In this document: piece by piece, positions 9,651 to 26,197 of the stretch
How positions within the stretch are numbered: position 1 is the stretch's first letter
How the letters are laid out: each line of letters begins with the position of its first letter
Assembly: GCA_964430095.1 (NCBI GenBank)
Contig: CAYSGP010000216.1
Coordinates: forward strand, 1-28,022
DNA: 28,022 nucleotides
DNA from: an uncultured Ignavibacteriaceae bacterium
GTDB lineage: Bacteria; Bacteroidota; Ignavibacteria; Ignavibacteriales; Ignavibacteriaceae
Direction: 5' to 3'
The notes under the pieces: generated by a model
Told to the model about the DNA's origin: nothing
What the model saw: only the letters and a program-made list of their open reading frames with translations
Database searches by the model: none
Program-made: the position numbers and the translations under genes

Positions 9651-10280
9651 CTATTTGCTTAAGATCATTTTTTTTACTTCGGAAAAATTTCCGGCCTGTA
9701 ATCTGTAAAAGTATACTCCGCTTGCCAATTCATTTGCATTGAATGATGCTTTGAAAAACCCCGCAGGTTTTATTTCACTTACAAGTGTGGTTATTTCGGT
9801 TCCAATAATATTATATATTTTTAATAATACAAATGAGTGTTCTGCAATGTAATATTCTATTGTGGTGGAAGGATTAAACGGATTAGGATAATTCTGAAAA
9901 AGCTGAAATGATAAAGGAGTATTTGTTTTTCCATAAACAGAAGTGGTACTCAAAACTGTAATTGTACCGGCCATTCCTACACCGCCTGGACTGCCATGAG
10001 GGACGCAATAATATCTATGTAATCCTTCATTTGAAATAACTTTTGAGAAGACGCGAATAGTACTTGTAATAGGAGAGTTCCAGGAATCAATTCCTGAAGT
10101 AACGTCAGATGTAGTTGTGTGAATCCCGTTCTGCCACTGCCATTCAACTGTATCACCGGCTGCAATATTTATATCTTTTGGATCGAATTCAAAGTCTCTT
10201 ACAAAAATAATATGTTTGGTTTGTCCAAGGCTGATTGCAAGACTGCCAGATAATAACAAAAGAAAAAAACAATTTTTCAT
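9651..10280 (-). CDS. Plastocyanin/azurin-family cupredoxin with a T9SS (Por) C-terminal sorting domain
   Basis: Signal peptide; FEFDPKDINIAAGDTVEW; type-1 copper ligands GIHTTTS and YYCVPHGSPGGVGMAG; CTD FQLFQNYPNPFNPSTTIEY...SGVYFYRLQAG...KKMILSK. Confidence 0.9.
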   Translation of the reverse strand: MKNCFFLLLLSGSLAISLGQTKHIIFVRDFEFDPKDINIAAGDTVEWQWQNGIHTTTSDVTSGIDSWNSPITSTIRVFSKVISNEGLHRYYCVPHGSPGGVGMAGTITVLSTTSVYGKTNTPLSFQLFQNYPNPFNPSTTIEYYIAEHSFVLLKIYNIIGTEITTLVSEIKPAGFFKASFNANELASGVYFYRLQAGNFSEVKKMILSK

Positions 10281-10420: not shown

Positions 10421-10774
10421 CTAATTTTCATTTTCAAATAGATTTTCTTTATCCAGTTTGTTGTTTGTTTTAGGTTCCCAGTGTAATCCATCGCACGGGA
10501 TGTAATTAATTGAGGGATGGCGGTCATGTTTTAAACAAAGAACGGCGCTCTTATCAAAATTTCTGCAGGTTGAGCACAGAGATGATTCAATTACTTCTTT
10601 ATTTTTTTCTTCAAAAAGCTTGTAATGAACAATTGCCGGATGGATTATAATTACATAAATGCCCATTGCTGAAATAATCCACCAAAATCCAAAATCAATA
10701 TAACTTCTCAAAATCCAGAGAACAGGGATTAGCAAAACTATTCTGAACAATGTCCAAAAAACAATTTCTCCCAT
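10421..10774 (-). CDS. Hypothetical membrane protein with a C-terminal four-Cys motif
   Basis: Two hydrophobic helices, then Cx2Cx9Cx13C (CSTCRNFDKSAVLCLKHDRHPSINYIPC); no competing ORF. Confidence 0.7.
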   Translation of the reverse strand: MGEIVFWTLFRIVLLIPVLWILRSYIDFGFWWIISAMGIYVIIIHPAIVHYKLFEEKNKEVIESSLCSTCRNFDKSAVLCLKHDRHPSINYIPCDGLHWEPKTNNKLDKENLFENEN

Positions 10775-10963
10775 CTAAAAACTCATTTTTTTTATAAAAT
10801 ATCAGAATTTGAGCTATAATCAAATTTAGTAATCCAATTTCAATAAAATAAAACAGAAAACCATTATTTAGATTATTTTATTAATTGTATATTATAACTA
10901 AATTTAGGAAAGTAACTTTTACCAATGAGTAATTGAAGGTAAAAATAAGTGGGGTTTATATAG

Positions 10964-11035
10964 TGAGCGCGGGTGGTATCGAACCACCGACCCTCTGCTT
11001 AAAAGGCAGATGCTCTACCACTGAGCTACGCGCCC
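10964..11035 (-). tRNA. trnK: tRNA-Lys (anticodon UUU)
   Basis: Reverse complement GGGCGCG TA GCTC AGTGGTA GAGC A TCTGC CTTTTAA GCAGA GGGTC GGTGG TTCGATA CCACC CGCGCTC A folds as a full cloverleaf; CCA is not encoded. Confidence 0.97.
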
Positions 11036-11117
11036 CTTTTTAGGAGCCCGAAATATAAAAAATAGAACTTTTTTATCCAAGTAAACAAGTTATTTTTAAT
11101 ATAAATACAAATTAAAT

Positions 11118-12485
11118 ATGAGCAGCAAAAATTCAAAAATATTAGTCTGTGATGATGATGAAACTCTGTGTTATCTATTAAAAGAGCAGCTTCTGGAAGA
11201 AGGTTTTTCGGTTGATACTGTTTATGATGGAAGTTATGCAATTGATGCTATTAAAAGAAAACCTTCATATGATGTTCTTTTACTGGATCTTGAAATGCAG
11301 AATGTACCGGGTGAAGAGGTATTAAAATTTGCAAACGATTATTGTACGTCAATCCAGGTGATTGTACTTACTGCTAAATCTGAAATTAAAAAAGCAATTG
11401 AATGTATTAAGCTGGGAGCCTACCACTATATTACCAAACCATATGATTTTGACGAGCTGCTTCTGGATATAAACAAAGCAATTGAGCATAAAGAACTATT
11501 TGTTAAAAGCACTATACTTGCAGACCAGCTAAATAAAAAACACCCCAATAAAATTTTAGGCAGCAGCTCAGAGCTTCATAAGACACTTCATTTGGCTAAC
11601 AAAGCAGCTCAATCCGATTCCAATATTTTAATTGAAGGAGAAACCGGTACGGGTAAAGAATTATTTGCCGAGTATATACATAAACGTTCCGCAAGAGTCG
11701 AAAAACCGTTTGTAGTTGTAAACTGTGCCTCACTGCCGGATCAGCTTATTGAAAGCGAATTATTCGGACATGAAAGAGGTGCATTTACAGATGCAAAATC
11801 TACTAAGCAGGGTTTAGTTGAAATAGCTCATGGGGGTTCCCTTTTTCTCGATGAAATAGGCGAGTTATCTCTTTCGCTTCAGCCTAAATTACTGCGCTTC
11901 CTGGAAAATGGAGAATATCGAAGAATCGGTGGAGTAACCAATTTAACCTCAAACGTCCGTGTAATCGGAGCTACAAACAGAAATCTTCTTGAAGAAGCAG
12001 ATATTAAAAATTTTAGAAGAGATCTTTTGTTCCGGTTAAACGTAATTACCCTTACCATTCCTCCTTTAAGAGAAAGAAAGGAAGATATTCTACTCCTGGC
12101 AAATCATTTTCTCACTTCTAAATCTTCCATTAGAGCTCCTAAAAAGTTAACTCCTAAAGCAGAAGCTACTTTGGTTACATATGATTTCCCTGGAAATGTA
12201 AGAGAACTTGAACATATAATTGAACGAGCAATAATCTTCGCAGAGGGAGAATATATAAACGTGGAAGATTTGAATCTGCCAGCTTCTTCCAGAAAACTGA
12301 CAACAATTGATGAGGATAACGGCAAGTCAGAAGAAATTCTAAGTATTGAGGAAATGGAAAAAAGGCATATAGCAAAAGTGCTTAGGCATAACAGATGGGA
12401 CAGAACCCGAACTGCCAGTATTTTAGGCATCAGTCCAAAAACACTTTACACCAAGATTAAGAAATATGAAATTAAACAAGAATAA
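11118..12485 (+). CDS. Sigma54-dependent Fis/NtrC-family response regulator (REC-AAA+-HTH)
   Basis: REC (DDD, LLD, KPY); Walker A GETGTGKE; ESELFGHERGAFTDA; LFLDEIGEL; FRRDLLFRLNV; FPGNVRELE; HTH RTRTASILGISPKTLY. Confidence 0.95.
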   Translation: MSSKNSKILVCDDDETLCYLLKEQLLEEGFSVDTVYDGSYAIDAIKRKPSYDVLLLDLEMQNVPGEEVLKFANDYCTSIQVIVLTAKSEIKKAIECIKLGAYHYITKPYDFDELLLDINKAIEHKELFVKSTILADQLNKKHPNKILGSSSELHKTLHLANKAAQSDSNILIEGETGTGKELFAEYIHKRSARVEKPFVVVNCASLPDQLIESELFGHERGAFTDAKSTKQGLVEIAHGGSLFLDEIGELSLSLQPKLLRFLENGEYRRIGGVTNLTSNVRVIGATNRNLLEEADIKNFRRDLLFRLNVITLTIPPLRERKEDILLLANHFLTSKSSIRAPKKLTPKAEATLVTYDFPGNVRELEHIIERAIIFAEGEYINVEDLNLPASSRKLTTIDEDNGKSEEILSIEEMEKRHIAKVLRHNRWDRTRTASILGISPKTLYTKIKKYEIKQE

Positions 12486-12488
12486 TGA

Positions 12489-14477
12489 ATGCTCTCTAAA
12501 ATTGTTACTAAATACGCACTGAAAGATCTCTTAGAAACAGAGAGTGGTCTGGCAATTGCTGACGCAAATAAAAAAATAATTTGGTATAATAAAAGCTTTA
12601 AGGAAACTGCCGGATTAAAAAAAATTAAGGGAAGAAAATTTGAGGATCTTTTCCCTAATGCAAATTGGAAAAAACAGGATTCAGGGAAGAAGAAAAAAAA
12701 TTCCGTTGAAACACTAATTTCACCCGAGCATCAAAAACTTGAGATAGCGTCGCTCAAGAATGGAACTGCAACCGAGTACTTTACTTTAAAAATAAAAACG
12801 GTAGCTCAGGAAAAAATCACAACCCATCTTGATGCGGAATTACTGAATCGAGATCTTTCTTTTCAAAATGTACTTAAAGAAGTCCTTTCGTTTTTAACTA
12901 CAGAAAAATCAATAACCTTCGTATCGGAAGAGCTACTTAAAAGATGTGTAGCAGTTTGCAGAGGGAATTTCGGTATAACCGTCATCTTTAAAAAGGATAA
13001 AAAAGTTGAATATATATATTTTGATCAGTATCAGCATTTAAAGAATAAAAAAGATGCTGAGAAAGAGATTAAAGCCAGCTTTTCTTTTTTAAAGAAATGG
13101 TTTGAAGTAAATAAGCATACCCTTATGGCTTTAAATGAACATGGAAATATTGCCTACAATCTGACGCGAGCTCTTCAAAGCCAAACCTTATTAGCTTCCC
13201 CTTGTTTTTATAATGGGGAACTTCTGGCAGTAATAATTATTGGAAAGGGGAAAGGAATTTTTTCCTCACTAGACGTTAATTACCTCGAAAAATTTGCAGA
13301 TCTTTTGGCGCTTGCAATTAATAGTGCTTACAATGAAGAATTAAATAATGCGCTTGAGACAAGACTTCAGCAGGCTCAAAAGCTGGAAACTATAGGAAAA
13401 TTAACAAGCGGAATGGCTCACGATTTTAATAATCTTCTTTCCAGTATTTTCGGAAGTCTTAACCTTCTCAAAAAAAGGGTTCCTGAAAATGAAAATACGT
13501 TCCGGCTGATTGATAATATTGAAAATTGTTCTATAAGAGCTAAAGATTTGACTAAGGGATTATTAACATTCGGGAAACCTACCCAGAAAAGGAAAGAAAT
13601 TATTAAACCGAATGTTCTTTTAACTGAAATTAGTAAAGTAGTGACTCAAACCTTTCCAAGGACTATCAAATTTGAAATGGATTCAGAAGACCGTCTCCAT
13701 AATTTATTGGGAAACAGCACTGAAATATATCAGGTTCTCCTGAATTTATGCGTAAATGCAAAGGAAGCTATCGAAAAGGAAGGAAAAATTGTTTTATCAG
13801 CCAGAAATATCCAAGTCAATGAACATAATTTAATAAAATATCCGCACCTTAGTAAAAATAATTATGTTTTATTCTCTGTAAAAGATAATGGCTCAGGAAT
13901 ATCCGAGGAAAACATCCAAAAAATATTTGAACCTTATTTCTCAACTAAAGAGAAAGAGACAGGATCTGGTCTGGGGCTGTACATTACTTACGGTATAATA
14001 AAAGCTCACGACGGTTATATTGAGGTAATCAGCAAATTAAATAAAGGCACAGAGTTTAACATTTATCTTCCCTCCTACGAACCCGTAAAAGCAGAAGAAA
14101 AAGCTGCTCCCCATGCTTCGGAAAAAATAATTCTGCTGGCAGATGACGAAATGATGTTGCGGGATTTGCTTGCAGAACTTCTGGAATCACAAGGTTATAA
14201 TGTTATAAGAGTCGCCACCGGTAAAGAGGTTCTGACAGTGCTTACGGAAGAATTAAAGGTTGATTTAATAATTATTGATTATAATATGCCTGAAATGAAC
14301 GGTTTGGAATGTATCAGGAGAATAAAAGAACTCGATTTTAAAATGCCGATTATACTTTCTACCGGAAGTTTATCTGTTGAAGAAAAAGTAGGCTCAGATA
14401 CTGACGGGATAAGCAGCGTGTTGACGAAACCATATGAATTCGATACGATGCTTAATACAATTCAAAAATTAATCTGA
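12489..14477 (+). CDS. Cytoplasmic hybrid histidine kinase (PAS-like, GAF, HisKA, HATPase, REC; CckA-type H-box)
   Basis: GMAHDFNNLL H-box; QVLLNLCVNAKEA; DNGSGIS; IFEPYFSTK; GSGLGL; C-terminal REC (ADDE, IID, KPY). No obvious TM helix. Starts 3 nt after the activator stop. Confidence 0.93.
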   Translation: MLSKIVTKYALKDLLETESGLAIADANKKIIWYNKSFKETAGLKKIKGRKFEDLFPNANWKKQDSGKKKKNSVETLISPEHQKLEIASLKNGTATEYFTLKIKTVAQEKITTHLDAELLNRDLSFQNVLKEVLSFLTTEKSITFVSEELLKRCVAVCRGNFGITVIFKKDKKVEYIYFDQYQHLKNKKDAEKEIKASFSFLKKWFEVNKHTLMALNEHGNIAYNLTRALQSQTLLASPCFYNGELLAVIIIGKGKGIFSSLDVNYLEKFADLLALAINSAYNEELNNALETRLQQAQKLETIGKLTSGMAHDFNNLLSSIFGSLNLLKKRVPENENTFRLIDNIENCSIRAKDLTKGLLTFGKPTQKRKEIIKPNVLLTEISKVVTQTFPRTIKFEMDSEDRLHNLLGNSTEIYQVLLNLCVNAKEAIEKEGKIVLSARNIQVNEHNLIKYPHLSKNNYVLFSVKDNGSGISEENIQKIFEPYFSTKEKETGSGLGLYITYGIIKAHDGYIEVISKLNKGTEFNIYLPSYEPVKAEEKAAPHASEKIILLADDEMMLRDLLAELLESQGYNVIRVATGKEVLTVLTEELKVDLIIIDYNMPEMNGLECIRRIKELDFKMPIILSTGSLSVEEKVGSDTDGISSVLTKPYEFDTMLNTIQKLI

Positions 14478-15146
14478 TTTATTTTCTTTCTTATCCACTT
14501 CGATCATTTTTATATTCTTAATGTATTCCGAGAATATCGGTTTCTTTATAGAATTAAGCTGATTTAATACATCATTTATTTCCATAATGCCGGATTCAAT
14601 ATAGCTCAGCCGTTTTTGAATATTTTCTTTTGATATTTCATCCTTGCTCAGCTCTCTTTTTATAGCTGCCAGGGAAAGGCTCATTAATGTTAAAGGCTGT
14701 TTAATTTTGTGGTTTGCAGTCACAACAGTTGCAGCAAAAGTATTTCTCTTCTCGGAGTCCACAAGCCGTTTGGTGGCTTCAGATAATTTTAATGCTGAAT
14801 TAACTCTTGCTAATAGCTCTATCCTGTTAAAAGGTTTTTTAACATAGTCATAAGCTCCGGCTTCCAAACCTTCTTTGGTATCTTCAGCACCCGCTTTGGC
14901 TGTAACCAGAATTATTGGAATATTAGAAGTAGCAGGATTTGAGACTAATGTTGTGCAAACCTCAAGCCCTGTTAATCCGGGCATCATTACGTCAAGAAGC
15001 ACCAAATCGGGTAAATCGCTCAAAGCTTTGTCAATGCCCGATTTTCCGTCATAAGCCGTAATTACTTCATAACCTTCGTTTTCAAGCCGGTCTTGCAGCA
15101 TAAAAACATTTTCAGGAAGGTCATCTATAACAAGAATTTTTTTCAT
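14469..15146 (-). CDS. Response regulator receiver fused to a HisKA/DHp-like domain without a HATPase domain
   Basis: REC (IDD, LLDVMMP, VTA, KP) followed by TANHKIKQPLT and a second helix, ending without N/G1/F/G2 boxes. Confidence 0.85.
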   Translation of the reverse strand: MKKILVIDDLPENVFMLQDRLENEGYEVITAYDGKSGIDKALSDLPDLVLLDVMMPGLTGLEVCTTLVSNPATSNIPIILVTAKAGAEDTKEGLEAGAYDYVKKPFNRIELLARVNSALKLSEATKRLVDSEKRNTFAATVVTANHKIKQPLTLMSLSLAAIKRELSKDEISKENIQKRLSYIESGIMEINDVLNQLNSIKKPIFSEYIKNIKMIEVDKKENKSD

Positions 15147-18100
15147 TTCACAACAGGTTTAGTTTTAGCGAACAGTTTTTCTATTTTAAATGCAAGCACT
15201 CCGGCGTTTACAGGTTTTGAAATATAATCATCAAAACCGTGCTTGAGTATTATTTTTTTATCTTCCAGCATTGCCTTAGCAGTTACGGCAAATACTGGTA
15301 TATTAGTCCAATTAGCAGTTTCTTTTATTTTTTTTATTGTTTGAAATCCATCCATAACAGGCATCATTATATCAAGAAGAATTAAATCCGGTATTGAAGC
15401 TTCTAATATCTGCATGCATTCAATTCCGTTCTTTGCCAATATGGTTTTGCAATTGCATGCTTGTATCATTTCGTTTAGAGTAAATAATGTATCTGCATCA
15501 TCATCTACAATCAAAACCTCCCCAAGGACAATTTTGGGTTTTTCTTGTTCCTTAATAGGAAATTCTTCTCTAGTATCGCTATTTAATTCTTCGGCATTTT
15601 CCATAAGCTCTTCCATATCAAACTGCATTCCATTCTTAAGGGAATCATTTTCTGCTGTTTCTTCCATTAGTTTAATCCTATCGCGGACAGTTTTTAAAAC
15701 ATCAATAGGATGTCCTTTAGATTTTACCGCAATTTCTTCTACTATATTGTTTAAAGATTCCTTTTCATCAGGAGATAAATCTTTGGCCGTGCTTATTATA
15801 ATAGGGATATTTTTTGTCTCCGTATTAGATTTAATCATATGAGAAAGAGTAATTCCGTCAATATTTGGCATCAGCAAATCAATTATTATTAAATCAGGCT
15901 GGATTTCTGCTATCTTATTAAGAGCAATTCTGCTGTCCTGGATATAATGAAATTTTACAGGTACAGTTTTAAAGGCAGCGTTAAATTTTTCAAATTCAAT
16001 TTCATCATCATCAACTATTACTATTTTTTCAATTCTTTTTTTAGCAATATTTTCCAGCTTCTCGAATGCTGAAAAAAGCTGTTCATGCGAGATTGGTTTT
16101 ACGAAATATTCAAATGCACCAAGACCATATCCAACTTTTTTATCACCAATAATTGAAATTAAAATAACAGGAATATCTCTCGTTAAAGAACTTTCCTTCA
16201 ACTCCTTTAAAACAGTCCAGCCATCCTTTTTGGGAAGCATTACATCCAATGTAATAGCAAACGGCTGCTTTTCAATAGCTTCTTTTATTCCTGTTTCACC
16301 ATCTTCCGCATAAATTACTTCATAGCCTCTAGAAATTAAGTATTGCCCTATAGTAAACCGGGCTTCTTTATCATCATCAATTACTAGGATAGGATTTCTT
16401 AGATTTTTTCTTAATACAGCGGCATTTACAACAAGCTCTGTTTTTTGATCTTTAATTTGAATTGATTTTAAAGGTATTTTGAAAATAAATTTCGACCCGC
16501 TGCCGAATTCGCTTTCAACAGACAAAGTACCGTTAAGAAATTCGGAAATACGTTTGCAGATTGCCAGACCCAGTCCTGTTCCGTTATATCTTTTCGTACT
16601 TGTTCCGTCTAATTGCCTGAATTCCTCAAAAATAATTTTTTGATGTTCTTTTGAAATCCCGATACCTGAATCGCATATTTCAAACTTCAAAAAATTACCG
16701 GAAGAATTAAATGATAATTTCTGATCCGTCAATTTTTTTTCTGTGCTGACATTTAGTTTTATAAAACCTTTTTCCGTAAACTTAATTGCATTGCCAAGTA
16801 AATTGATTAAGACTTGTGTTACTTTTCCCTTGTCGGTATGAACTAATATCTTAGTCTCCAAGTTTCTTTTTATTTCAAAATCAATATTTTTTTCCTGAAC
16901 AAGAGGCATGAAAGATTCCTGAATCTCATTAAGTAAATCATCAAGCAGGAAATCCTCTTCTTTCAAGTCAACTTTACTCGCTTCAATTTTTGAAAGATCT
17001 AGAATATCATTAATTAAGTTCATCAGCCTTTTACCGCTGTTATTAACCACCTGCAGTCTTTCCTTATTTTTTCCTTTCAAACTAGAATCTTCCAGCATCA
17101 ATTCCGTTAGCCCAAGAATTGAATTCATAGGAGTTCTAAGTTCATGAGACATGGAGGCAAGAAATTGGGATTTTAATTTTGTCGATTCTTCAGCCTTTTC
17201 CTTTTGAATCTCTAATTCTCCGGCTTTTTCCTTTACTTCATTATGAAGTTTTACCAGTTTCTCATTTTGATGTATAATTTGGATATTCTGTTTTTGATAC
17301 TCTTCATTAAGTTTTTTTAATTCAGAAACGAGGTTTTCCATTTGTATGAAAGCAACTGCATTGGTTATTCCTATTGCCAGCTGTTCCTGTATCTTTGCCA
17401 GGTATTCTTTTGCTTCTTCCGAAGGAGGATCTACCGAACCAAGTTCAAGAATTGCAATTATCTTATTGTTATAAACTACCGGCTGTATAAGAAGGTATTT
17501 TATTTGCAGCTTTAATATTCCGGCAGAAATAGTGGGATAATTTTCTTCAAAATTTATTTCGACTAATTCACGATCCTTTACAAGTGTATTGAAATAATTT
17601 ATTTCTTCTGTTAAAGAATAGCCATCGGGCAACCCGAAAGATGAGGTTAAGGTGATTTTATCATTTACAATGGAATAAAGGGCACCAATTGTGAATTTCC
17701 CGGTTTTTATGATTTTCTTTAATGCTGCATCTGCGGCTTCTTTTAAAGTCGGATTTTTATTAATTAATGTTATGAATTCTGAATATTCATTTTTTGCTTT
17801 AAGGTTTTTTTCCAGAACATCCAGCATTTTATTAAATGCTTCCGCTAATTTTCCAAGTTCATCGGTGCTTTCTACTTTTATCTTGTTCTTAAAATTTTCA
17901 TCAACAATTGTTTCGGTAGCCCTGGCCATCTGAGTAATTTGTTTTCTCATTTTCCCGGTAAACAAATATGTCAATATCAATGAAAGCACTATTCCTGCAA
18001 AACCAATAACAATTGAAATATATTTTAGACTGCTCCTGATTTCGACTCCTTCACCATGAGAAACAAAGATTAAGAACTTCAGTCCGGGTTCCTGATCATA

Positions 18101-18751
18101 AGATTCCGTGTAGCATAAAGACGCTAAGATATCTCCCTCGTCCGTTTCCTTTGAATAAATATTAAAGTCGTTTCTTTTGTTGAGCGCTGAATATGCTTCT
18201 ACTAAATATGGGATATATTTATTATTTATAGATTCATTCGAAAATAATAAGGGAATTCCGTTGGAGACTACCGCAATATCGGCTTTAATCTTCTTTGATA
18301 TGGAAGTTAAAAGAGATGGGGAAATCATCTTGCCGTAATAAAAAATCTTGTCTCCAAAGATGATTTTTCTAACTATCAATCCTGGATTATTGGCAATCAA
18401 ACTTTTCAGGGTAATTTCTTTAGGGATATTAAAGAAGTTGGTCCAGTATATCAATTGATTAAAACCATTGTCGCTTTTCAAAATAAAATCAATATTTTCG
18501 TTAATTAATGATTTATTCAGCTCAACGATGCCCGACGATTCATTCAACTTCAACTTAAAAAAAATTTCATCAATGTTTTCAAGTTCGTCGCGGTATGCGT
18601 ATAAAAAATCGTTGCTGGAGTTAATCAGGTATTTTGATTGCTGATTGGTAAGAATGCTTGATATTACCGAATAAAAAGCTAAAGCCGAACTGCCAATTAT
18701 TACCAAAACGATGGCAAAATTGATGAACAGAATCCGGTAACTTATTTTCAT
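15143..18751 (-). CDS. Membrane hybrid histidine kinase: periplasmic sensor-HAMP-GAF-HisKA-HATPase-3xREC
   Basis: Two TM helices; HAMP (STDELGKLAEAFNKM); GAF; MSHELRTPMN; NLLGNAIKFT; DSGIGIS; GTGLGLAI; three receivers with intact Asp (ITLD, IIID, ILLD). Confidence 0.93.
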   Translation of the reverse strand: MKISYRILFINFAIVLVIIGSSALAFYSVISSILTNQQSKYLINSSNDFLYAYRDELENIDEIFFKLKLNESSGIVELNKSLINENIDFILKSDNGFNQLIYWTNFFNIPKEITLKSLIANNPGLIVRKIIFGDKIFYYGKMISPSLLTSISKKIKADIAVVSNGIPLLFSNESINNKYIPYLVEAYSALNKRNDFNIYSKETDEGDILASLCYTESYDQEPGLKFLIFVSHGEGVEIRSSLKYISIVIGFAGIVLSLILTYLFTGKMRKQITQMARATETIVDENFKNKIKVESTDELGKLAEAFNKMLDVLEKNLKAKNEYSEFITLINKNPTLKEAADAALKKIIKTGKFTIGALYSIVNDKITLTSSFGLPDGYSLTEEINYFNTLVKDRELVEINFEENYPTISAGILKLQIKYLLIQPVVYNNKIIAILELGSVDPPSEEAKEYLAKIQEQLAIGITNAVAFIQMENLVSELKKLNEEYQKQNIQIIHQNEKLVKLHNEVKEKAGELEIQKEKAEESTKLKSQFLASMSHELRTPMNSILGLTELMLEDSSLKGKNKERLQVVNNSGKRLMNLINDILDLSKIEASKVDLKEEDFLLDDLLNEIQESFMPLVQEKNIDFEIKRNLETKILVHTDKGKVTQVLINLLGNAIKFTEKGFIKLNVSTEKKLTDQKLSFNSSGNFLKFEICDSGIGISKEHQKIIFEEFRQLDGTSTKRYNGTGLGLAICKRISEFLNGTLSVESEFGSGSKFIFKIPLKSIQIKDQKTELVVNAAVLRKNLRNPILVIDDDKEARFTIGQYLISRGYEVIYAEDGETGIKEAIEKQPFAITLDVMLPKKDGWTVLKELKESSLTRDIPVILISIIGDKKVGYGLGAFEYFVKPISHEQLFSAFEKLENIAKKRIEKIVIVDDDEIEFEKFNAAFKTVPVKFHYIQDSRIALNKIAEIQPDLIIIDLLMPNIDGITLSHMIKSNTETKNIPIIISTAKDLSPDEKESLNNIVEEIAVKSKGHPIDVLKTVRDRIKLMEETAENDSLKNGMQFDMEELMENAEELNSDTREEFPIKEQEKPKIVLGEVLIVDDDADTLFTLNEMIQACNCKTILAKNGIECMQILEASIPDLILLDIMMPVMDGFQTIKKIKETANWTNIPVFAVTAKAMLEDKKIILKHGFDDYISKPVNAGVLAFKIEKLFAKTKPVVK

Positions 18752-19116
18752 TATGAATCTCTTTGTAAGACTTTCCTTATTGTAATTAGAAGTTCGTCAA
18801 AGTCATAAGGTTTGCTAATAAAGTCACCGGCTCCCATCTTAGCAGAATCTATTGCGCTTTTTACATCGGCGTAAGCGGTTAAGACTATAACTTTAGATTT
18901 GATTTTTTTTGTTTCAAGCTCTTTTAATACTTCGAATCCATCCTTCTCCGGCATTTTCAGATCAAGAAGAATTAAGTCAACTGAACGCTTTGCAAGGAAA
19001 GTAAAGGCATCATCACCCTTGCTTACATAATCAGCATCATAGCCGACTTCACTTAATTCCTCCTTCAAAGCAGAACAGAGGCTTAGATCATCATCAACAA
19101 TAAGTATGGATTCCAT
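18751..19116 (-). CDS. Single-domain response regulator
   Basis: 121 aa REC: IVDDD, LLDLKMP, VLTA, KPYDFDELL; stop overlaps the kinase start (TAATG). Confidence 0.93.
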   Translation of the reverse strand: MESILIVDDDLSLCSALKEELSEVGYDADYVSKGDDAFTFLAKRSVDLILLDLKMPEKDGFEVLKELETKKIKSKVIVLTAYADVKSAIDSAKMGAGDFISKPYDFDELLITIRKVLQRDS

Positions 19117-19132
19117 AAATATTTAATGCTCG

Positions 19133-20356
19133 CTATTCCTGATTAAACTTATAATATTTAATCTGCTCACGATGCTTGTTTACTTCATCTTTTATCGGAG
19201 TATTAGAATGTGCACCTGCAACTCTCTCCTTAAGAGTTGGAACTAATTCACATTTGAGAAGAATTATCAATTCTTTCCTGTTAATCGTAATTTCCTCGCT
19301 TCCAAATAAATATCTCAAACCGAAAAACCACCATGGAAGATCCTTAAGTATGGGGATTCCTCTTCGGGAGGTGGTTTCATCATTAATGAATAATCCACCT
19401 ACTATAACTTCTTCACCATTAAGCATAAGCACCTGAGTAGTTGCCGAAGTTTTTTGAATCTGAGTTACTACAGGATCTGGTATATAAGAACTTCTTTCGG
19501 CTTTAATTTCAAGCACAGTATATTCAACCTCATCTTCTGTGTACACATGAGGAGTAACTTCAATGATGGTACCTGTTGAATAGAAATTTTCAATTATATT
19601 TCCTGAAAAATCTCTCTGTTTAATTCCTATATCAACTCCAACTTGAATTCTCCCTATTTGATTATCTCTAACAGTTACATTCGGGCTTGCAATAATTTGT
19701 CCAAGCTGTTCTTTTTCAAAAAATTTGAATATCGCAGTTGCTTCGCCGAAAAAACCACCCAGATCAAAACTTCCAGTGCCTTTAAGTTTGAAATCAGGGG
19801 CTTGCTGTTGATTACCTTGCTCAGAGGTTTCTGTCTTTGTCTCAGGCTCATTAAATAATTCTCCGTTAACATTCAATCCTTGTTTCGAAAAAAGAAACTG
19901 CCAGTCGACCCCTCTTTTTTTGGCTTCATTATCATCCATCTCGAAAAATACTGCTGACAATTTGACTTCCCTGCTGTTAATATCCGCATAAGTTTTTGCG
20001 GTTCTATCTATTTCAATATCATCCTTTTTCTTAACAATTATTACATCTTCTTTCTCTTCATACATCATCCCCTGCATTTGAACCAGGATCAATAAAGCCT
20101 TATCATAAGCCATGTTTTTTATTTCAATCCCTACCGGACTTTCCGAATCAACAGTCGTAACTATTCTTTTCCCGGTTATGCTTTCGCTTACCTTGCTCAA
20201 TAAAGCTATAGCCTGATTGAATGGAAGATTAGGTGACATTGATACCAGTTCATCGGGTCGTGTATATCCTCTCAGGGTTTTTTCGAGTAAATCCTGAGAA
20301 TGAACTGACAGCGTAAAGCTTAATAATAAAATAACGGTTGTTAAGAGTTTTTTCAT
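19133..20356 (-). CDS. pilQ: Type IV pilus secretin (short form)
   Basis: Signal peptide; N0-like domain; secretin core from REVKLSAVFFEM...GVDW; IIASPNVTVRDNQ; GTIIEVTPHV; VLMLNGEEVIVGGL; RGIPILKDLP...LF...RKELIILL. Confidence 0.9.
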   Translation of the reverse strand: MKKLLTTVILLLSFTLSVHSQDLLEKTLRGYTRPDELVSMSPNLPFNQAIALLSKVSESITGKRIVTTVDSESPVGIEIKNMAYDKALLILVQMQGMMYEEKEDVIIVKKKDDIEIDRTAKTYADINSREVKLSAVFFEMDDNEAKKRGVDWQFLFSKQGLNVNGELFNEPETKTETSEQGNQQQAPDFKLKGTGSFDLGGFFGEATAIFKFFEKEQLGQIIASPNVTVRDNQIGRIQVGVDIGIKQRDFSGNIIENFYSTGTIIEVTPHVYTEDEVEYTVLEIKAERSSYIPDPVVTQIQKTSATTQVLMLNGEEVIVGGLFINDETTSRRGIPILKDLPWWFFGLRYLFGSEEITINRKELIILLKCELVPTLKERVAGAHSNTPIKDEVNKHREQIKYYKFNQE

Positions 20357-20371
20357 TTTAAATTCTCACAA

Positions 20372-21259
20372 TTATTTTTTCTTAATATTTTCTTTTTCCA
20401 GGACTAAATCAATTTTTTCAACAATACCGCCCTTATTGATAATAAAGTTCACTTTATTATGATCATAATCAATATTGGTTAGATAACCAAGATAAACAGG
20501 TTCACCTTCCCAAAGCAGGTATGTATTTCCTTTTATATCAGAGAGGAAGGCGCCTTCAGGTATAAGTGCAAGCAATTTACCTCCTTGAACATCAAACAAC
20601 TCATCAACATTCGGAGGTATTTCATTTCTAAGCAGCGGATAAAATGCATCATACATTGTCCTTGTACTTAAATCATTTTCAATAAATTCCGCAGTCGAGA
20701 ACCTATCATCTGATGAATAATAAACATGTACCTCCATACTGAAACCCACTAAGAAATTGGGAATCCCCATTTCATCTGTCGCTACCTGGTTTGATAAGCT
20801 AAATGAGGTAATTTTTTTAAGTTCTTTACTTTGTTCGATTGCATAAATAAATTGATAAAGCTCATTATAAGTTGCAGAACCTGTAATTTTATAATTAAAA
20901 TAAAAAAAGTCTTTATCAGGTTTTTGTTCAATATATTCGACGTCTATTTTAGAGGTGGAAGAGAACCCCGCAGTGATATTATTTACGAAATCATAAAATT
21001 TAATAGAGGAAAGATTCTGAGGTATGTTGAATTTTCGCGCTGCTAGAACTGAGTCCAACTCAGAAGCTTTTACTAACAAATTATCATACTGCTGCTTTAA
21101 TTGGGAGGTATTATAATCATTAGCTTTCAATTCTTTTAACTTATCTTGTTTTTCAGACAACTTACCCCTTTGAATAATAAAGGTGTATGCGCCTCCGGTA
21201 AGCAGAATGAAAATTAATAAGCTCAGAAGAGCAAACGTATTTTTTAATTTTCTATTCAT
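20372..21259 (-). CDS. pilO: PilO-like alignment protein with a C-terminal PilP-like domain
   Basis: N-terminal TM, coiled coil, and ferredoxin-like PilO core (ITGSATYNELYQFIYAIE); lies between pilMN and pilQ; about 90 extra C-terminal residues resemble PilP. Confidence 0.7.
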   Translation of the reverse strand: MNRKLKNTFALLSLLIFILLTGGAYTFIIQRGKLSEKQDKLKELKANDYNTSQLKQQYDNLLVKASELDSVLAARKFNIPQNLSSIKFYDFVNNITAGFSSTSKIDVEYIEQKPDKDFFYFNYKITGSATYNELYQFIYAIEQSKELKKITSFSLSNQVATDEMGIPNFLVGFSMEVHVYYSSDDRFSTAEFIENDLSTRTMYDAFYPLLRNEIPPNVDELFDVQGGKLLALIPEGAFLSDIKGNTYLLWEGEPVYLGYLTNIDYDHNKVNFIINKGGIVEKIDLVLEKENIKKK

Positions 21260-22796
21260 CCTTGTCTTTCAAATAACTTGATAAATTATATTGTAAATTA
21301 AACCTGTAAATATTTTTATCTCTAAGATCCTCGGAGAAAATTCCCTTCAATTCAGATACATTGATCGAATACGCAAATTGTGTTAATACACTTTTACTCA
21401 GAGAATATCCTTCAAGATTTACATTTCTATTATCACTGGAAGTTAATCTCGTTGACCATATATTTCCTTTACCTGCAAAGAAATCTGATATATGTGCCAG
21501 ATTTCTAGACCAAACACCAGTGCCCTTTGAAGCAGAGTCTAAAATTGCTTGAGTCTGTCCAAAGCTGCTTATTTTATTTTCCACTGAGGAAATTTTTCCC
21601 AATAATTCCTGATTTTGCCTTAGAAGACCTGAATACTTTATAACTTCCTGGTCCAATGCACTCAGTTTTTTATTATTTAATAGAGCTTGAGTGGTGATAA
21701 AGAATGTAGCAGCAAATAATAACGGTACAATTGCATACCCATGCCAGGCAAATTGAAATGATTTTTGATCTTCCTTTACATACCTGGGAAGAAGATTGAT
21801 CCCTTTATATTCTTCGGCAATTTCCTCGAAGTATTCATTAGCAACTGCAATCGGAATACTAAAAGCAGAAAATGTTTCTTTAATATCACTCCCCAAAGAA
21901 CTTAAATCAAGGTCATCGAATTCTAAGCGGGAAACATTTGCCTCAGGAAAAGTTCCGTAGAAAGAAAGAATCAAATTTTCCGAATCATCTTCACCGCAAA
22001 CTATGATGTTATCCAGCTGTGAGACTCCCCCATTTTCCATTTCAAGCAGAATCTTTGAAAAATAAACATCATAAGTATTTAAATTTATTGTTCCGATATC
22101 CAGGGTTGAACCGATATGCTTGAGTTTTCTTCCGTGAAGAAATATTAATTTACTATATTCTTTACCGATGTAAACAATTAAAGATTGATCATCCGGGAAG
22201 AATTTTTTTCTTTTGGCTACATAATAGGCTAAAGAAATTTCCGCACTTTTGACAGTAGGAATTTTATAATTCCGTTTTCCGTTCAGCTGGGCTAGGGAAT
22301 TAATTAATCTAAAACAGCCGACATCATTACTGAGGAAAACAGATAGAATTGATTTATCTGCTAATTCTATATAGCCAAGACTTTCTTTGTCAACTGAAAT
22401 ATTTTTTGTCTGATATATATCATCAGCAATTTCTTGCGTTAGCTTAACTGATTTACTCTTCTTGGATCCTTCATAAATATGATAAATAATGGAAGGTTCA
22501 GTTAATGCTGGGATAAAGAAAGCTTTATTTAATACGATTCCTCTTAAAGAGGAATTAATTACATTCAAACCGGAAGTATTTACACTCTGTGTCAAGGAAG
22601 CTTGTTTATCGAGTCCTTCGAGCGTTAATTCTTCCCCTTCAATTTTTAATTCCCCAATTCCGTCATCAACCTCCAAGGCAGGCTGAAGAACATCGAAAGA
22701 TATGGTTTTAAGGACTTTTATTTTATCCTTTACTTTTTCTACTGCGGCAATTTTGGTATCATTGCCTTCGCAGTAAACACAAATCAGCTGTCTCAC
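21252..22796 (-). CDS. pilM: PilM-PilN fusion protein
   Basis: Actin-like N-terminal domain, then the PilN signature INLLP (aa 333-337, nt 21786-21800), a TM helix, a coiled coil and a PilN-like C-terminus (VNLEGYSLS). GTG start. Confidence 0.75.
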   Translation of the reverse strand: MRQLICVYCEGNDTKIAAVEKVKDKIKVLKTISFDVLQPALEVDDGIGELKIEGEELTLEGLDKQASLTQSVNTSGLNVINSSLRGIVLNKAFFIPALTEPSIIYHIYEGSKKSKSVKLTQEIADDIYQTKNISVDKESLGYIELADKSILSVFLSNDVGCFRLINSLAQLNGKRNYKIPTVKSAEISLAYYVAKRKKFFPDDQSLIVYIGKEYSKLIFLHGRKLKHIGSTLDIGTINLNTYDVYFSKILLEMENGGVSQLDNIIVCGEDDSENLILSFYGTFPEANVSRLEFDDLDLSSLGSDIKETFSAFSIPIAVANEYFEEIAEEYKGINLLPRYVKEDQKSFQFAWHGYAIVPLLFAATFFITTQALLNNKKLSALDQEVIKYSGLLRQNQELLGKISSVENKISSFGQTQAILDSASKGTGVWSRNLAHISDFFAGKGNIWSTRLTSSDNRNVNLEGYSLSKSVLTQFAYSINVSELKGIFSEDLRDKNIYRFNLQYNLSSYLKDKDE

Positions 22797-24068
22797 TTAT
22801 ACCGCCGATAATAGTTGTTGAATTCTTGTTTTATTATTTGCAAATGCAACAGCATTTTCTAATGTCACTTTTTTATTTAAGTATAGTCTCTTCAAATCCT
22901 GTTCCATTGTAATCATTCCCATCTGTCCGCCTTGATTCATCATCATGTATATTTCGCTTGTAGTATTGTTTTTTATGGCTGCTTTTACACTAGGGGTGAC
23001 TACTAAAACTTCTTTAGCGAGAATTATTTTTCCGTCTACCCCTGGAACTAATTTCTGTGATACAATAGAAATCAAAACATCTGCCAAGCGGTTTCTTACT
23101 CTTTCCTGCTCGTTGGGATGAACTTCAGCTACAATCCTATCTATTGATTCTACAGCGGATGATGTATGCAATGTAGAAAATACTTTATGACCGGTATCTG
23201 TTACCTCTAATGCAGCCATAATTGTATCAGGATCTCTCATTTCACCAATAACAATAACATCCGGATCCTGTCGTAAAGCTTGTACAATTCCGTCTTTAAA
23301 TGAGAGAACATCTTTCCCTACTTCTCTATGCTTTATTATGCATTTATTGGATTTATGAACATATTCAATCGGGGAAGCTATTATTACAACATGAGCGGGA
23401 TCCACTTTATTATGCGCATCAATTATTGCATCGAGCGTTGTTGATTTTCCCGAACCAGTTATACCTGTTATTAAAGAGAGTCCGAATTTGATGTACATAT
23501 GGCTCATGGCTCTTATGACATTTTGATGAAAGTCGTATGATTCTAAAGTGCGAACACCTTGATTAATAGCTCTCATGTTAAGTGCAAGTGTATCCAGATC
23601 ATAGTATGCGTCTGCTCTGAAACGAATATCAATTTTTTTCCTTTCATATAAAAAAGAATAGCTGAAATCAAGATTTCTTGTAACTGTTAGATATTTTCTC
23701 TGGTTGGCATTTAAAAGATTTATTAACACTACTGCAGATTCATCTTCCGAAAATTGCGGCAGGTCGTAAGCCCTTTCTTTTTTTCCATAAATTCTGAACC
23801 AAACAAAGCCTCCATTTCCGTGTCCGCCTATTTCAATATCAGAAGCTTCTCTTTCAACCATGCTGGTGAGCAGTCTATTGAAATAATTTTTAAGAAGAAT
23901 TCTTTCATCTGCTTTCAACTTCTCTATATTTTCAATAATAAAGGAGATACGTTCGGGACCATAATAAAATTTTGGAATTGTATTCACAAAATTCTGGAGA
24001 GTAGTTTTTACATCATTAATGGATATAGTTTCCTTCTGCTGAATAGGTTTCACACTTGGAGTCGCCAC
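22797..24068 (-). CDS. pilT: PilT/PilU family type IV pilus retraction ATPase
   Basis: Walker A GITGSGKST; SPIEYVH; HREVGKD; ALRQDPDVIVIGEMRD; TGHKVFSTLH; ISIVSQKL; GMITMEQDL. PilT versus PilU is not resolved. Confidence 0.85.
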   Translation of the reverse strand: MATPSVKPIQQKETISINDVKTTLQNFVNTIPKFYYGPERISFIIENIEKLKADERILLKNYFNRLLTSMVEREASDIEIGGHGNGGFVWFRIYGKKERAYDLPQFSEDESAVVLINLLNANQRKYLTVTRNLDFSYSFLYERKKIDIRFRADAYYDLDTLALNMRAINQGVRTLESYDFHQNVIRAMSHMYIKFGLSLITGITGSGKSTTLDAIIDAHNKVDPAHVVIIASPIEYVHKSNKCIIKHREVGKDVLSFKDGIVQALRQDPDVIVIGEMRDPDTIMAALEVTDTGHKVFSTLHTSSAVESIDRIVAEVHPNEQERVRNRLADVLISIVSQKLVPGVDGKIILAKEVLVVTPSVKAAIKNNTTSEIYMMMNQGGQMGMITMEQDLKRLYLNKKVTLENAVAFANNKTRIQQLLSAV

Positions 24069-24100
24069 TTTTTCCCTTTCTTATTTCTTACTTAATTCTA

Positions 24101-24116
24101 TGCTATAAGTATGCCA
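24101..24116 (-). promoter_or_regulatory. Candidate sigma54 (-24/-12) promoter upstream of pilT
   Basis: Minus strand TGGCATACTTATAGCA: GG-N10-GC spacing, perfect TGGCA, and TAGCA versus consensus TTGCA. The predicted +1 near 24090 is about 22 nt before the GTG start at 24068. Confidence 0.6.
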
Positions 24117-24305
24117 ATTTTTAGTAAAAATGAATGAACAAATAGCAAATTTTAACTTTTATTTAAGATTGTTTTGAGGGAAATAGAAGGAAAAAATTAA
24201 GGTATATAGTGATTAGAAAATCAATAACAATTGATAATCTTAAACACTAAATACCTTTTCAATTTTCAAACAAACAGGTACTGTGGTTAAATGTATTTTT
24301 ATTTC

Positions 24306-25562
24306 TTATTCATACCATGAAAGAATTTCAAACTTGTTTGTACCAGGGAAATATGGAGGAGAGATGGTCATAAATCTTTCATCGTATATATATCTTTTTG
24401 AATACCCATGCACCATTTGCTGTGTAGAACTGTTAAACTGACCAACAGGCTTTCGCTCATGCTGGATTAATCCTCCGAATAGATTAATTGCACCGCAAGA
24501 TGATGGTGACCTGTCATCATAATCTTCAGCAGTAAATCCTTTTTCTGTATAAATTGAACCATGTATATTAATGTTTTTAGTTGCTGTAGAATTCGTAATA
24601 GTTACATCCCCCTTTGCTACAATTCCCAGCATGTCTTGCGTTTTATCATTGTATACTATATCGTCATCAATCCAAACACCCGCAGTTGTTCCGATAGAAT
24701 AATCTCCTTTTAGAGTACCTTTTAATCTAACATCTATAGGCGTTCCATATCTATCTGTGGCATCAACAAAAATAACTCCGTTGGAACTTAAATCTGATGT
24801 TTTTACAGTTGCTTCTGTAACCCTATCATACCATGTATTGCTGACCTTTTCTCTCCAGTTATATTTATAATACACAGAATCTTGCTTAAATGTCAAATAA
24901 AATGTTTCATAACGAGTGGTGCTATTCGATTGTAAATTAAAAAGCTTACCGCCATTATTTACTGCATCCTCTCTTAGGTTACTTACCCCATCGGTTGGCA
25001 TAGGGCAATCTCCTAAATCATAACCCCCTAAAAACTGAGGATTGTCAGATGGTGATTTCTTTACTACACCCAGTTTAGTAGTAACTCTACCAAAGAAAAC
25101 CGGTTTACCACTTACATATAATTTATCCTGCGTATGAAATGGTCCCCAGCAGGTATCTTTTGACATCCAGTAAATTGTACCATTTTTATCTTCATCTTCA
25201 CAAAAATATGCATACTTAGAAAACTTACTTGGTGCAATTATCATCTGAACTCTGCTTGTACATGAATCATATCTTCCAATAGTTGTTACTATTTTGCGTT
25301 CACCGTCCTGTTCAACTGTTGTTTCAAATGTCCCACCATTATATGACGTTTCCACGAATCCGGAATCCCACTCCGGATTAAATGATATTTTTGCTGCAGC
25401 CAAGTTTGCAGCACTTACTGCTATCTCATGAGAAACTGTGTTGGTGTAATACCTTACAGAATTCTGAACAGATCTTGTTGAAACATCCCCAAGATTTCTC
25501 CCCATGATTAGGAAGATAACACTAAATGACATTACTAAGAAAAGAATGGCTTTCCCGCTCAT
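24306..25562 (-). CDS. PilX-like minor pilin with a large C-terminal domain (DUF4900-like)
   Basis: GGAGG SD; N-terminal hydrophobic helix followed by SHEIAVSAANLA; FSKYAYF, GPFHTQD, LGIVAKGDV, NLFGGLIQ and GYSKRYIYDERF...PPYFP are typical of PilX-like proteins in pilus clusters. Confidence 0.65.
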   Translation of the reverse strand: MSGKAILFLVMSFSVIFLIMGRNLGDVSTRSVQNSVRYYTNTVSHEIAVSAANLAAAKISFNPEWDSGFVETSYNGGTFETTVEQDGERKIVTTIGRYDSCTSRVQMIIAPSKFSKYAYFCEDEDKNGTIYWMSKDTCWGPFHTQDKLYVSGKPVFFGRVTTKLGVVKKSPSDNPQFLGGYDLGDCPMPTDGVSNLREDAVNNGGKLFNLQSNSTTRYETFYLTFKQDSVYYKYNWREKVSNTWYDRVTEATVKTSDLSSNGVIFVDATDRYGTPIDVRLKGTLKGDYSIGTTAGVWIDDDIVYNDKTQDMLGIVAKGDVTITNSTATKNINIHGSIYTEKGFTAEDYDDRSPSSCGAINLFGGLIQHERKPVGQFNSSTQQMVHGYSKRYIYDERFMTISPPYFPGTNKFEILSWYE

Positions 25563-25574
25563 TTTTTTTCCTCC

Positions 25575-26189
25575 TTATCTTTTTAAATTTTGCACCGATA
25601 GGCGTATCTGCCTCCAGAAAACTTGGGATTGGGTACTATCATAATGCTCCGGATCGTAAGCGTATACATTTTCAACCGCAACATCTATCATCATTCTTTG
25701 AGCACCTTCAACCGGATAATCAGTTAATTCGGTGCCGAGTCCGTCAAAGTAACGAAGACGGAAATGCGTAACCCCGAGATTAATACGGACTGGGGTTTCA
25801 TTATTTATTACACGATACAAATATTTATCTCTGGGATTCGGAGTACTCAATAGTTCAGATGTAGGCCCCGTATAGTAATCTACTGTTTCCCATCCAAAAT
25901 CTTCATCAATATCTGCTTTAAATCTAATATGAGTTGAATCTGCCAGCAGTATTATATCAGAAAGTTTAGTTACTGTAGCGATCTGATCCAGGTCGCTGGA
26001 ATAGCCGATTTTTCTAAAATCATATTCAATAACAGACACGACGGCAGCAATGTTTTCCTGTGCAATTAATTCGCCCGTATTGTTATAAACATTTTCAGTT
26101 CCTGCATCATTGAGACGGAATAACAATAACATTACTATTCCTCCAATTATCATGGAACCGATTACATCAATTAATGTAGTGAATCCCAT
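25575..26189 (-). CDS. PilW/GspJ-like minor pilin
   Basis: Start reassigned to ATG 26189 (GGAGG SD): MGFTTLIDVIGSMIIGGIVMLLLF pilin-like helix; IEYDFRKIGY resembles the 'l..DlR.aGy' segment of PilW-type pilins. Confidence 0.65.
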   Translation of the reverse strand: MGFTTLIDVIGSMIIGGIVMLLLFRLNDAGTENVYNNTGELIAQENIAAVVSVIEYDFRKIGYSSDLDQIATVTKLSDIILLADSTHIRFKADIDEDFGWETVDYYTGPTSELLSTPNPRDKYLYRVINNETPVRINLGVTHFRLRYFDGLGTELTDYPVEGAQRMMIDVAVENVYAYDPEHYDSTQSQVFWRQIRLSVQNLKR

Positions 26190-26197
26190 TATTCCTC

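Follow-up and report, generated by a model that had tools for sequence, protein, structure and literature searches.

A conserved pilus-machine gene block of Ignavibacteriaceae with its own signalling genes and a facing candidate sigma-54 activator

We analyzed a stretch of 28,022 nucleotides (nt) from an uncultured Ignavibacteriaceae bacterium (CAYSGP010000216.1 of assembly GCA_964430095.1; G+C content ~34%), hereafter the window, and found that it holds the downstream two thirds of a conserved Ignavibacteriaceae gene block. The block encodes a type IVa pilus machine, whose operon runs gaplessly from pilC through pilQ into three signalling genes and is faced from the other strand by an activator gene and a kinase gene; that the machine genes, the three signalling genes and the facing pair form one conserved unit is near certain. 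Rather than a new type of circuit, this block looks like a more elaborate form of the known control of pili by PilR and sigma-54. The nearest relatives of the window's proteins are found in metagenome-assembled genomes of Ignavibacteriaceae.

To compare gene order across the family, we scanned one genome per GTDB species, found a relative of the PilM-PilN protein in 362 genomes, and mapped the best 80 of these 362 loci (PilM-PilN identity 58-95%) with tblastn. The order pilC-pilB-pilT-pilMN-pilO-pilQ-REC-kinase-REC/DHp, followed by the reversed kinase and activator genes, is kept throughout the 80 loci. A preliminary description of this DNA had called for such a synteny survey, and the activator indeed stays beside the run of pilus and relay genes in every relative that reaches that far (61 of the 80 loci); it is separated from the run in none, and the loci in which it was not detected appear to end before its position. 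Activator orthologues are 75-97% identical, i.e., more conserved than PilM-PilN, and in two loci the convergent units are 1.6-1.7 kb further apart. Upstream of pilC, pilin genes vary in number, place and strand, and past a 117-amino-acid (aa) open reading frame at the other end the neighbours differ among the window and the relatives L087, L088 and L089, so that the block has stayed intact while both of its flanks were rearranged.

Within the window, the minus strand forms one co-oriented run of pilB, three pilin-like genes, a 237-nt gap, pilT, the PilM-PilN gene, a PilO-like gene, the secretin gene and the signalling genes. Successive junctions from pilT to the last signalling gene measure 0, -8, +15, +16, -1 and -4 nt, similarly tight junctions are seen in L081, L085, L087 and L089, and the convergent units overlap by 9 nt. 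The genes, the tight packing and the convergence on a sigma-54 activator and hybrid kinase pair are thus as first described. The same description had treated the unit as self-contained and as starting at pilT, and neither holds: pilB and the three pilin-like genes precede pilT in the same orientation, and the unit starts with pilC and pilB, past the window end. The pilB frame (26812-28022, minus strand; 3' two thirds of the assembly ATPase gene, T2SSE E = 3.3e-94) is open to base 28020 and continues past the window end, and pilC is seen in relatives only, just past the position of that end. The closest relative (L001), with a 595-aa pilB orthologue preceded by pilC, has the layout pilin, pilC, pilB, three pilin-like genes, gap and pilT, which places the head of the operon beyond window base 28022.

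We propose a model that, taken as a whole, we hold to be about evenly balanced between right and wrong. In it, the activator would be an analogue of PilR whose phosphorylated form opens the sigma-54 promoters of a pilus regulon. In most species the machine operon would start from an element of the form TGGAAY-N5-WTTG about 50 nt before pilC, with related elements serving pilin and minor-pilin genes. In the window's lineage, where three pilin-like genes and a terminator-like hairpin would have been inserted between pilB and pilT, TGGCATACTTATAGC would restart transcription near 24090, from pilT through the relay genes. Both hybrid kinases would probably pass phosphate through a kinase-less histidine domain to the activator and to a single-domain receiver, a path that we infer throughout. 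The receiver could then act as a competitor or sink for phosphate, and feedback would arise because it is itself made from the activated operon.

Signalling genes of the block and their possible relay

Across 11118-19116, we counted seven REC domains, two full kinases and one kinase-less DHp domain in ~8.0 kb, in agreement with the earlier count; by eye, the acceptor aspartate is kept in all seven receivers. The activator gene (11118-12485, plus strand) encodes 455 aa with the NtrC-class domain order REC-AAA+-HTH_8 (PF00072; PF00158, E = 6.5e-65; PF02954), and its sequence shows the motifs DDD, LLDLEM and TKP. All 61 orthologues carry the loop GAFTDA, and all but one (GDTGTGKE) carry the Walker A sequence GETGTGKE. 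The sigma-54 interaction domain is intact. GAFTDA, an accepted functional form of the GAFTGA loop, belongs to those for which activity is expected to be retained in D. vulgaris, whose regulator DVU2106 has it (PMC4641369). No named NCBIfam equivalog is reached by the activator, with AtoC as its best match at 393.6 bits against a cut-off of 714 and the other models also below theirs.

Only 3 nt past the activator gene begins that of a soluble hybrid kinase of 662 aa (12489-14477, plus strand; Pfam PAS/GAF-HisKA-HATPase_c-REC, the PAS/GAF matches being weak). It is not a PilS-type kinase, having no hydrophobic N-terminal segments and carrying a C-terminal REC. Tail to tail, its gene shares the 9-nt overlap with the last gene of the machine operon. 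The kinase gene is broken in L085 and L087.

On the minus strand, the signalling genes of the machine operon are those of a single-domain receiver (18751-19116, 121 aa, REC only), a membrane sensor hybrid kinase (15143-18751, 1202 aa; Pfam HAMP-GAF-HisKA-HATPase_c-REC-REC-REC) and a protein of 225 aa that joins a REC to a kinase-less HisKA, or DHp, domain (14469-15146; the HisKA match is weak), hereafter REC-DHp. The single receiver is 46% identical to the REC of the activator, compared with 18-37% for all other REC pairs, and the two share the alpha-1 pattern xxLCxxLKExL as well as KPYDFDELL, the latter shared family-wide. By sequence comparison, the single receiver is a paralogue of the activator's receiver, and this likeness suggests that the two share a phosphodonor.

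The REC-DHp protein carries the motif NHxIKQPLT, which is invariant in 67 orthologues. Its C-terminal 103 residues (14469-14780) belong to a family of only 188 clusters (50% identity) among 1.84 billion representatives, in which the DHp domain sits almost always at the very C-terminus. Among wider relatives of this family, 23 of 26 match HisKA, with REC, TPR or GAF as N-terminal partners, and of the 54 families detected in these 26 proteins, the 25 commonest do not include HATPase_c. These results point to a small family of kinase-less HisKA proteins rather than to a broken kinase. A PDB sequence search with the DHp domain returned chance coiled-coil matches only.

A Pfam scan found no HPt domain among the signalling proteins of the window, which weighs against the proposed relay. 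Because both kinases are hybrid and an HPt domain is missing, the kinase-less HisKA is the sole visible candidate for the histidine transfer step. In the strongest form of the model, the operon would carry its own relay, in which the receiver-fused kinase-less HisKA links the envelope-sensing and cytoplasmic hybrid kinases to the activator and a decoy receiver, so that a self-limiting His-Asp-His-Asp loop sets the synthesis of the machine; we regard this as unlikely.

The alternative that survives best, although we still rate it well below an even chance and only a little above the operon-borne loop, divides the functions. The activator and the soluble kinase would then be a plain PilR-like pair for the pilin, minor-pilin and pilC promoters, and the signalling genes of the operon would act post-translationally on the motor or alignment complex, like Pseudomonas PilG/PilH, with the membrane kinase as sensor of an envelope signal; transcriptional feedback would then play no part. 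Such a division accords with the place of the membrane kinase and its partners inside the machine operon, with a kinase for the activator 3 nt downstream of it (the usual mark of a cognate pair), with the common mode of action of single-domain receivers by protein contact, and with the place of the conserved elements before pilin and pilC genes, which follows the PilR paradigm. It fits less well with the closeness of the single receiver to the activator's REC, which suggests a common phosphodonor, and with the hybrid nature of both kinases, each of which would need, to reach any terminal receiver, a histidine transfer step for which the machine operon encodes the sole candidate.

Candidate sigma-54 promoters

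The most widespread candidate promoter lies before pilC, where 37 of 65 loci carry TTTGGAAY-N5-WTTG(A/C/T) 46-67 nt before the ATG, such as AGGCATTAAACTTGCA at -46 in L001. Run against 1.45 Mb of related loci, a matrix made from these pilC sites gives next to no further matches above 20 bits. Within the 1.2 kb before pilC, such an element is present in at least 41 of 62 loci. Sequences such as AGGCACAATTCTTGCA, AGGAACGATATTTGCA and TGGCTTAATATTTGT precede minor-pilin operons on the opposite strand. Of 60 intergenic matches to GG[CA]A[CT]-N5-TTG, 42 lie 25-120 nt before a start; the corresponding numbers for the control spacings are 14 and 2 for N4, 14 and 7 for N6, and 9 and 0 for N7. In coding DNA the four spacings are much closer in density (0.06-0.10 per kb). 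Intergenic TGGCAY peaks sharply 40-70 nt before start codons, mostly those of pilin-like genes, and in many relatives TGGCAY sites without a -12 GC lie 47-64 nt before such genes. One subclass of the intergenic sites, TGGCATA-N4-TAG(C/T), has the same form as the element of the window. The geometry of these elements fits sigma-54, although the last base of the -12 element is loose in Ignavibacteriaceae, and we consider it somewhat probable that the pilus genes of this family have sigma-54-type promoters.

The window itself carries a -24/-12-type element, TGGCATACTTATAGC, on the minus strand at 24102-24116, where a sigma-54-like motif before pilT had already been pointed out. Its GG (24115-24114) and GC (24103-24102) doublets are 10 nt apart, it lies 34 nt before the GTG of pilT, and its predicted start is near 24090. 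It is the sole TGGCAY-N5-TWGC match in the window, with 0.10 expected, an optimistic expectation as the pattern was chosen after the site had been seen. Alignment with L001 reveals a 20-nt identical island around TGGCATACTTATAGC within a strongly diverged spacer. About 70 nt upstream of it, a long hairpin followed by a U-run (24189-24257, minus strand; -21.8 kcal/mol, z -6.3, with 0 of 200 shuffles as good) closes the inserted pilin-like genes in the manner of a terminator; its outer arms are kept in L001, where the inner stem differs in sequence yet pairs. The simplest reading of the hairpin and TGGCATACTTATAGC is a terminator followed by a promoter, and as to whether TGGCATACTTATAGC is a working promoter, we see the chances as equal on either side.

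Insertion of three pilin-like genes between pilB and pilT, where most relatives have a gap of 0-170 nt, is confined to the window's lineage (~95% identity; L001, L083 and L084) and to L037, L046, L054, L061 and L062. In most genomes, a three-gene minor-pilin cassette lies upstream on the opposite strand. The two groups with an inserted cassette carry different types of promoter-like sequence before pilT.

Several observations weigh against the sigma-54 model. At pilT, L083 and L084 retain TTGGCATACTT with GA at the position of the GC, a TGG-type GG-N10-GC element precedes the gene in none of ~70 other loci, and the five relatives with a similar pilin insertion carry TATATTTT in a conserved AT-rich segment instead. 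Nor is the -12 GC conserved elsewhere, with pilC elements ending in TTGA, TTGT or TTGC and TGGCAY sites having the consensus TGGCAYA-N-TTTTT, that is, a T-run instead of the -12 GC at most pilin-proximal sites; the canonical TGGCAY-N5-TTGC has 0 matches in the 1.45 Mb of related loci. A scan of 1.6 Mb of DNA found no RpoN box, and in the window's lineage no convincing enhancer site is common to the regions before the pilin gene, pilC and pilT. In addition, the synteny rests on the closest 80 of 362 matching genomes, and many of the motif counts are orthologous sites rather than independent events. No paper in the collection searched pairs rpoN with Ignavibacteria.

A further alternative, which we consider improbable, is that 24102-24116 is not a sigma-54 promoter. 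Transcription from pilT onward would come from a housekeeping promoter or from pilB read-through, or the TGGCAY and GGAAY sequences would be sites of another factor, and the activator would control other genes, its position reflecting inherited order. In favour of this are the lack of conservation of the motif beyond the 95% lineage, the loss of GC even in L083 and L084, and the general lack of a -12 GC in the TGGCAY sites of the family. So, too, are the Bacteroidetes-type TAnnTTTG box at a nearby tRNA-Lys gene and AAAATTTG, a 7/8 match that precedes the motif by ~30 nt; the block further includes a tRNA gene and a small, unrelated open reading frame, so that some of the linkage is plain synteny. 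Against it stand the uniqueness of the motif in the window and its conserved island, and the upstream hairpin and U-run speak against read-through. The spacing-specific enrichment fits sigma-54 geometry, and boxes of the GGAA type are, as far as we know, the norm at the -24 position of sigma-54 promoters in Campylobacter. Finally, an activator that remains 75-97% identical beside the pil genes while the flanks rearrange would need a nearby target. The preliminary claim of a sigma-54 promoter stands in part: a sigma-54 regulon is probable, but the site before pilT is specific to one lineage and the family-wide element is that before pilC.

The tRNA-Lys gene offers a comparison with an ordinary promoter. 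It lies 82 nt from the activator gene, upstream of it and on the opposite strand. The sequence cTTG-N20-TATATTTc (11050-11080, minus strand) ends 14 nt before the 5' end of the tRNA, and in L085 and L086 the corresponding box reads TATATTTG. The box matches the TAnnTTTG described for flavobacteria (PMC9723704). This suggests that Ignavibacteriaceae use a Bacteroidetes-type -33/-7 housekeeping promoter; the pilus elements belong to a distinct class.

Two sequences are candidate binding sites of the activator. One is GTAAWTCTTTCWAAA, a conserved element that 20 of 37 loci carry ~50 nt before the pilC element and whose one-mismatch copies are too common for it to be mapped elsewhere; it lies 50-110 nt upstream of that element in L006, L008, L013-L015, L019, L077 and others, and in one clade it comes with an ATTTAC-N12-GTAAAT inverted repeat. 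The other is a palindrome, ATTACATGTAAT, which in L001 and L083 precedes the pilin gene.

Other candidate signals were rejected. A sigma-54-like match in the 3' end of pilT (22893-22905, ATGGAACAGGATTTG), 109 nt before pilMN and found in many relatives, encodes MEQDLK; its Leu codon is free (TTG 15, TTA 22, CTN 15) and Met changes to Leu in many orthologues, without constraint at the DNA level. A GG-N10-GC match at 11006-11020 (minus strand), upstream of the 117-aa open reading frame, lies within the tRNA-Lys gene. A scan for sigma-70 promoters and terminators was uninformative, with 82 promoter-like hits compared with 68.8 in shuffled sequence (standard deviation 5.8) and 9 terminator-like hits compared with 9.7, and it missed the long hairpin.

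The pilus machine and neighbouring genes

Evidence for the machine comes from several sources. The PilT/PilU-family ATPase (22797-24068, minus strand; 423 aa with an N-terminal extension of ~60 aa) reaches the cut-off of TIGR01420 (320.5 bits; cut-off 319.1), and its gene has a GTG start with GAAAGG upstream, both kept in L001 and L083. With PilB partly in the window and PilC in relatives, the PilB/PilC/PilT set of a type IVa machine is represented. The next protein (21252-22796, minus strand; 514 aa) has no Pfam match in the window copy, and PilN (PF05137) matches the C-terminal half of 17 of 21 homologues. An AlphaFold model of it, built from 21 homologues and of moderate quality (predicted local distance difference test, pLDDT, 60), has P. 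aeruginosa PilM (5EOY) and the Thermus PilM-PilN complex (2YCH) as its best PDB matches, and fold and homologues together support a PilM-PilN fusion. The 295-aa protein that follows (20372-21259, minus strand) has no Pfam match, and its model (pLDDT 60) finds PilO structures as its best PDB matches (5UVR, 3JC8_O and 2RJZ; weak, E ~3e-3); its C-terminal beta domain could be PilP-like. Of the pilMN-pilOP naming given earlier, the PilM-PilN fusion is upheld and PilO weakly so by fold, but the PilP half corresponds to this unassigned beta domain. The short, PilQ-like secretin (19133-20356, minus strand; 407 aa, PF00263 E = 3.6e-25) scores below cut-off on both the GspD and PilQ models. The alignment complex is thus recognized by fold for PilM, by Pfam in homologues for PilN, weakly by fold for PilO and by Pfam for the secretin.

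Upstream of pilT, the three pilin-like genes, all on the minus strand, encode a protein of 167 aa with a hydrophobic N-terminal helix, seen in its translation (26198-26701), one of 212 aa with a GFTTLID-type N-terminus (25575-26213) and a large one of 418 aa (24306-25562). The first two have no Pfam family, and the third has a weak DUF4900 match (25.5 bits, below cut-off) and is syntenic with the other two. Homologues of the 167-aa gene lie elsewhere, on the opposite strand, in most relatives. Pfam detects no prepilin N-methylation domain in the pilin-like proteins of the locus in the window, and most of these proteins are without Glu at position 5, e.g., MGQQQLLLIVLG and MNTGQMILAIGA (window 24306-26701; L001 2081-2485; L083 1603-2541); the pilins of Ignavibacteriaceae may be processed differently.

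That the machine is a secretion or DNA-uptake apparatus instead of a retractile surface pilus, with the signalling controlling secretion or competence, we judge very improbable: the missing N-methylation domain, the lack of any prepilin peptidase gene seen in the window, the short secretin with its equal, sub-threshold GspD and PilQ scores and the M. roseus genome, for which pilT, pilQ, pilB and pilC are listed and pilA and pilD are missing (PMC3534657), would fit it, but a PilT/PilU-family ATPase at the family cut-off and the presence of PilM, PilN and PilO are marks of a type IVa machine.

Downstream, the block extends past the activator. The tRNA-Lys(UUU) gene (10963-11035, minus strand), the sole Rfam match, is conserved in L085 and L086 and is a member of the block. 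The last conserved member is the gene of a small membrane protein (10421-10774, minus strand; 117 aa, 66% identical to the product of the same-position gene in L085) with two hydrophobic segments, a Cys-rich tail (CSTC...C...C) and no Pfam family, a position occupied by a gene of 110-114 aa in L087-L089. Beyond it, the rest of the window encodes Yip1, saccharopine dehydrogenase, OmpA, a glycosyltransferase, an ABC exporter, a Wzy-like protein, a nucleotidyltransferase and, at 9651-10280 (minus strand), a small cupredoxin of the plastocyanin/azurin family with a C-terminal sorting domain of the type IX secretion system, which is probably exported to the cell surface. In the long-read assemblies L086 and L088, pilC, pilMN, the secretin gene and the large kinase gene are split into short open reading frames, which looks like assembly frameshift error rather than gene decay.

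Comparison with known systems and significance

Control of pilin genes by sigma-54 and PilR is established, and sigma-54 has been linked with pili in general (PMC3162934). As in the PilS-PilR systems of Pseudomonas aeruginosa, Myxococcus xanthus and Geobacter, an NtrC-class REC-AAA+-HTH activator gene here stands beside type IV pilus genes and -24/-12-type elements precede pilin-like genes. The present block differs in that its activator falls under no named equivalog, in that the partner kinase is a soluble PAS/GAF hybrid, whereas PilS is a multi-pass membrane, non-hybrid protein, and in that its best conserved element precedes the machine operon at pilC and not the pilin gene alone.

The preliminary description knew of no pilus control circuit with this layout, which was too strong a statement given two precedents in M. 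xanthus (PMC6060248, PMC6211767). The M. xanthus pil cluster is reported to contain pilSR and pilS2R2, two sigma-54 pairs that are both needed for pilus-dependent motility (PMC6060248, citing Bretl et al. 2016), so that sigma-54 two-component genes are embedded, as here, in a type IVa cluster, which in M. xanthus is largely co-transcribed. The present block instead has one activator, two hybrid kinases, a single receiver and the REC-DHp protein, with signalling genes after pilQ, a convergent activator unit and a different phylum as host. The second precedent, NmpRSTU, combines a kinase, a receiver-only protein that is a possible sink, a hybrid receiver-kinase and an NtrC-like output; it is autoregulated and modulates pilus-dependent motility through a sigma-54 site in the pil locus, on which the relay ends (PMC6211767). 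The relay proposed here would likewise have several components, with a receiver-only protein and an NtrC-class output. Unlike our block, Nmp is encoded away from the pil locus and has neither a kinase-less histidine domain nor a triple-receiver kinase, and its phosphate flow was measured, whereas ours is a proposal.

In wiring design, though not in membership, the proposed relay resembles CckA-ChpT-CtrA/CpdR, in which a hybrid kinase acts through a DHp-type histidine transfer protein on a transcription factor and a single-domain receiver; in KinA-Spo0F-Spo0B-Spo0A, Spo0B is the DHp-type transfer step. The soluble kinase has CckA as its second-best NCBIfam match and the single receiver weakly matches CpdR, both far below cut-off. 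Unlike ChpT and Spo0B, the histidine domain here is fused to its own receiver and has no degenerate ATPase-like domain, and the output, unlike that of the CckA and Spo0 relays, is a sigma-54 activator. With the Pil-Chp system (PilG/PilH, ChpA), the block shares single-domain receivers associated with pilus genes, but domain scans of the window find no CheA, CheW, receptor, CheB or CheR gene, as had been noted from the first. The present case differs from the known systems in its phylum, in the signalling genes that follow pilQ, in having a triple-receiver kinase, the REC-DHp protein and a paralogue of the activator's receiver, and in the sigma-54-type element that heads the machine operon.

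To our knowledge, what is known of type IV pilus control comes almost entirely from Proteobacteria and Myxococcus. Sediments, aquifers and wastewater reactors commonly harbour Ignavibacteriota. Their pili have so far been noted just as a gene list, in the only genome paper that we found (PMC3534657), and Ignavibacteria go unmentioned in a survey of sigma-54 regulons from 2025 (PMC12316311). A compact conserved block with a candidate activator, candidate promoters and five signalling proteins provides a directly testable regulon for this phylum, and it touches on how far the -12 element of sigma-54 promoters drifts in AT-rich lineages and on the role of kinase-less HisKA proteins. Should the ordinary reading be true, the block would be another PilR-type system with extra kinases; should the operon-borne relay loop be true, it would represent a new relay design and give a first function to a rare family of kinase-less HisKA proteins.

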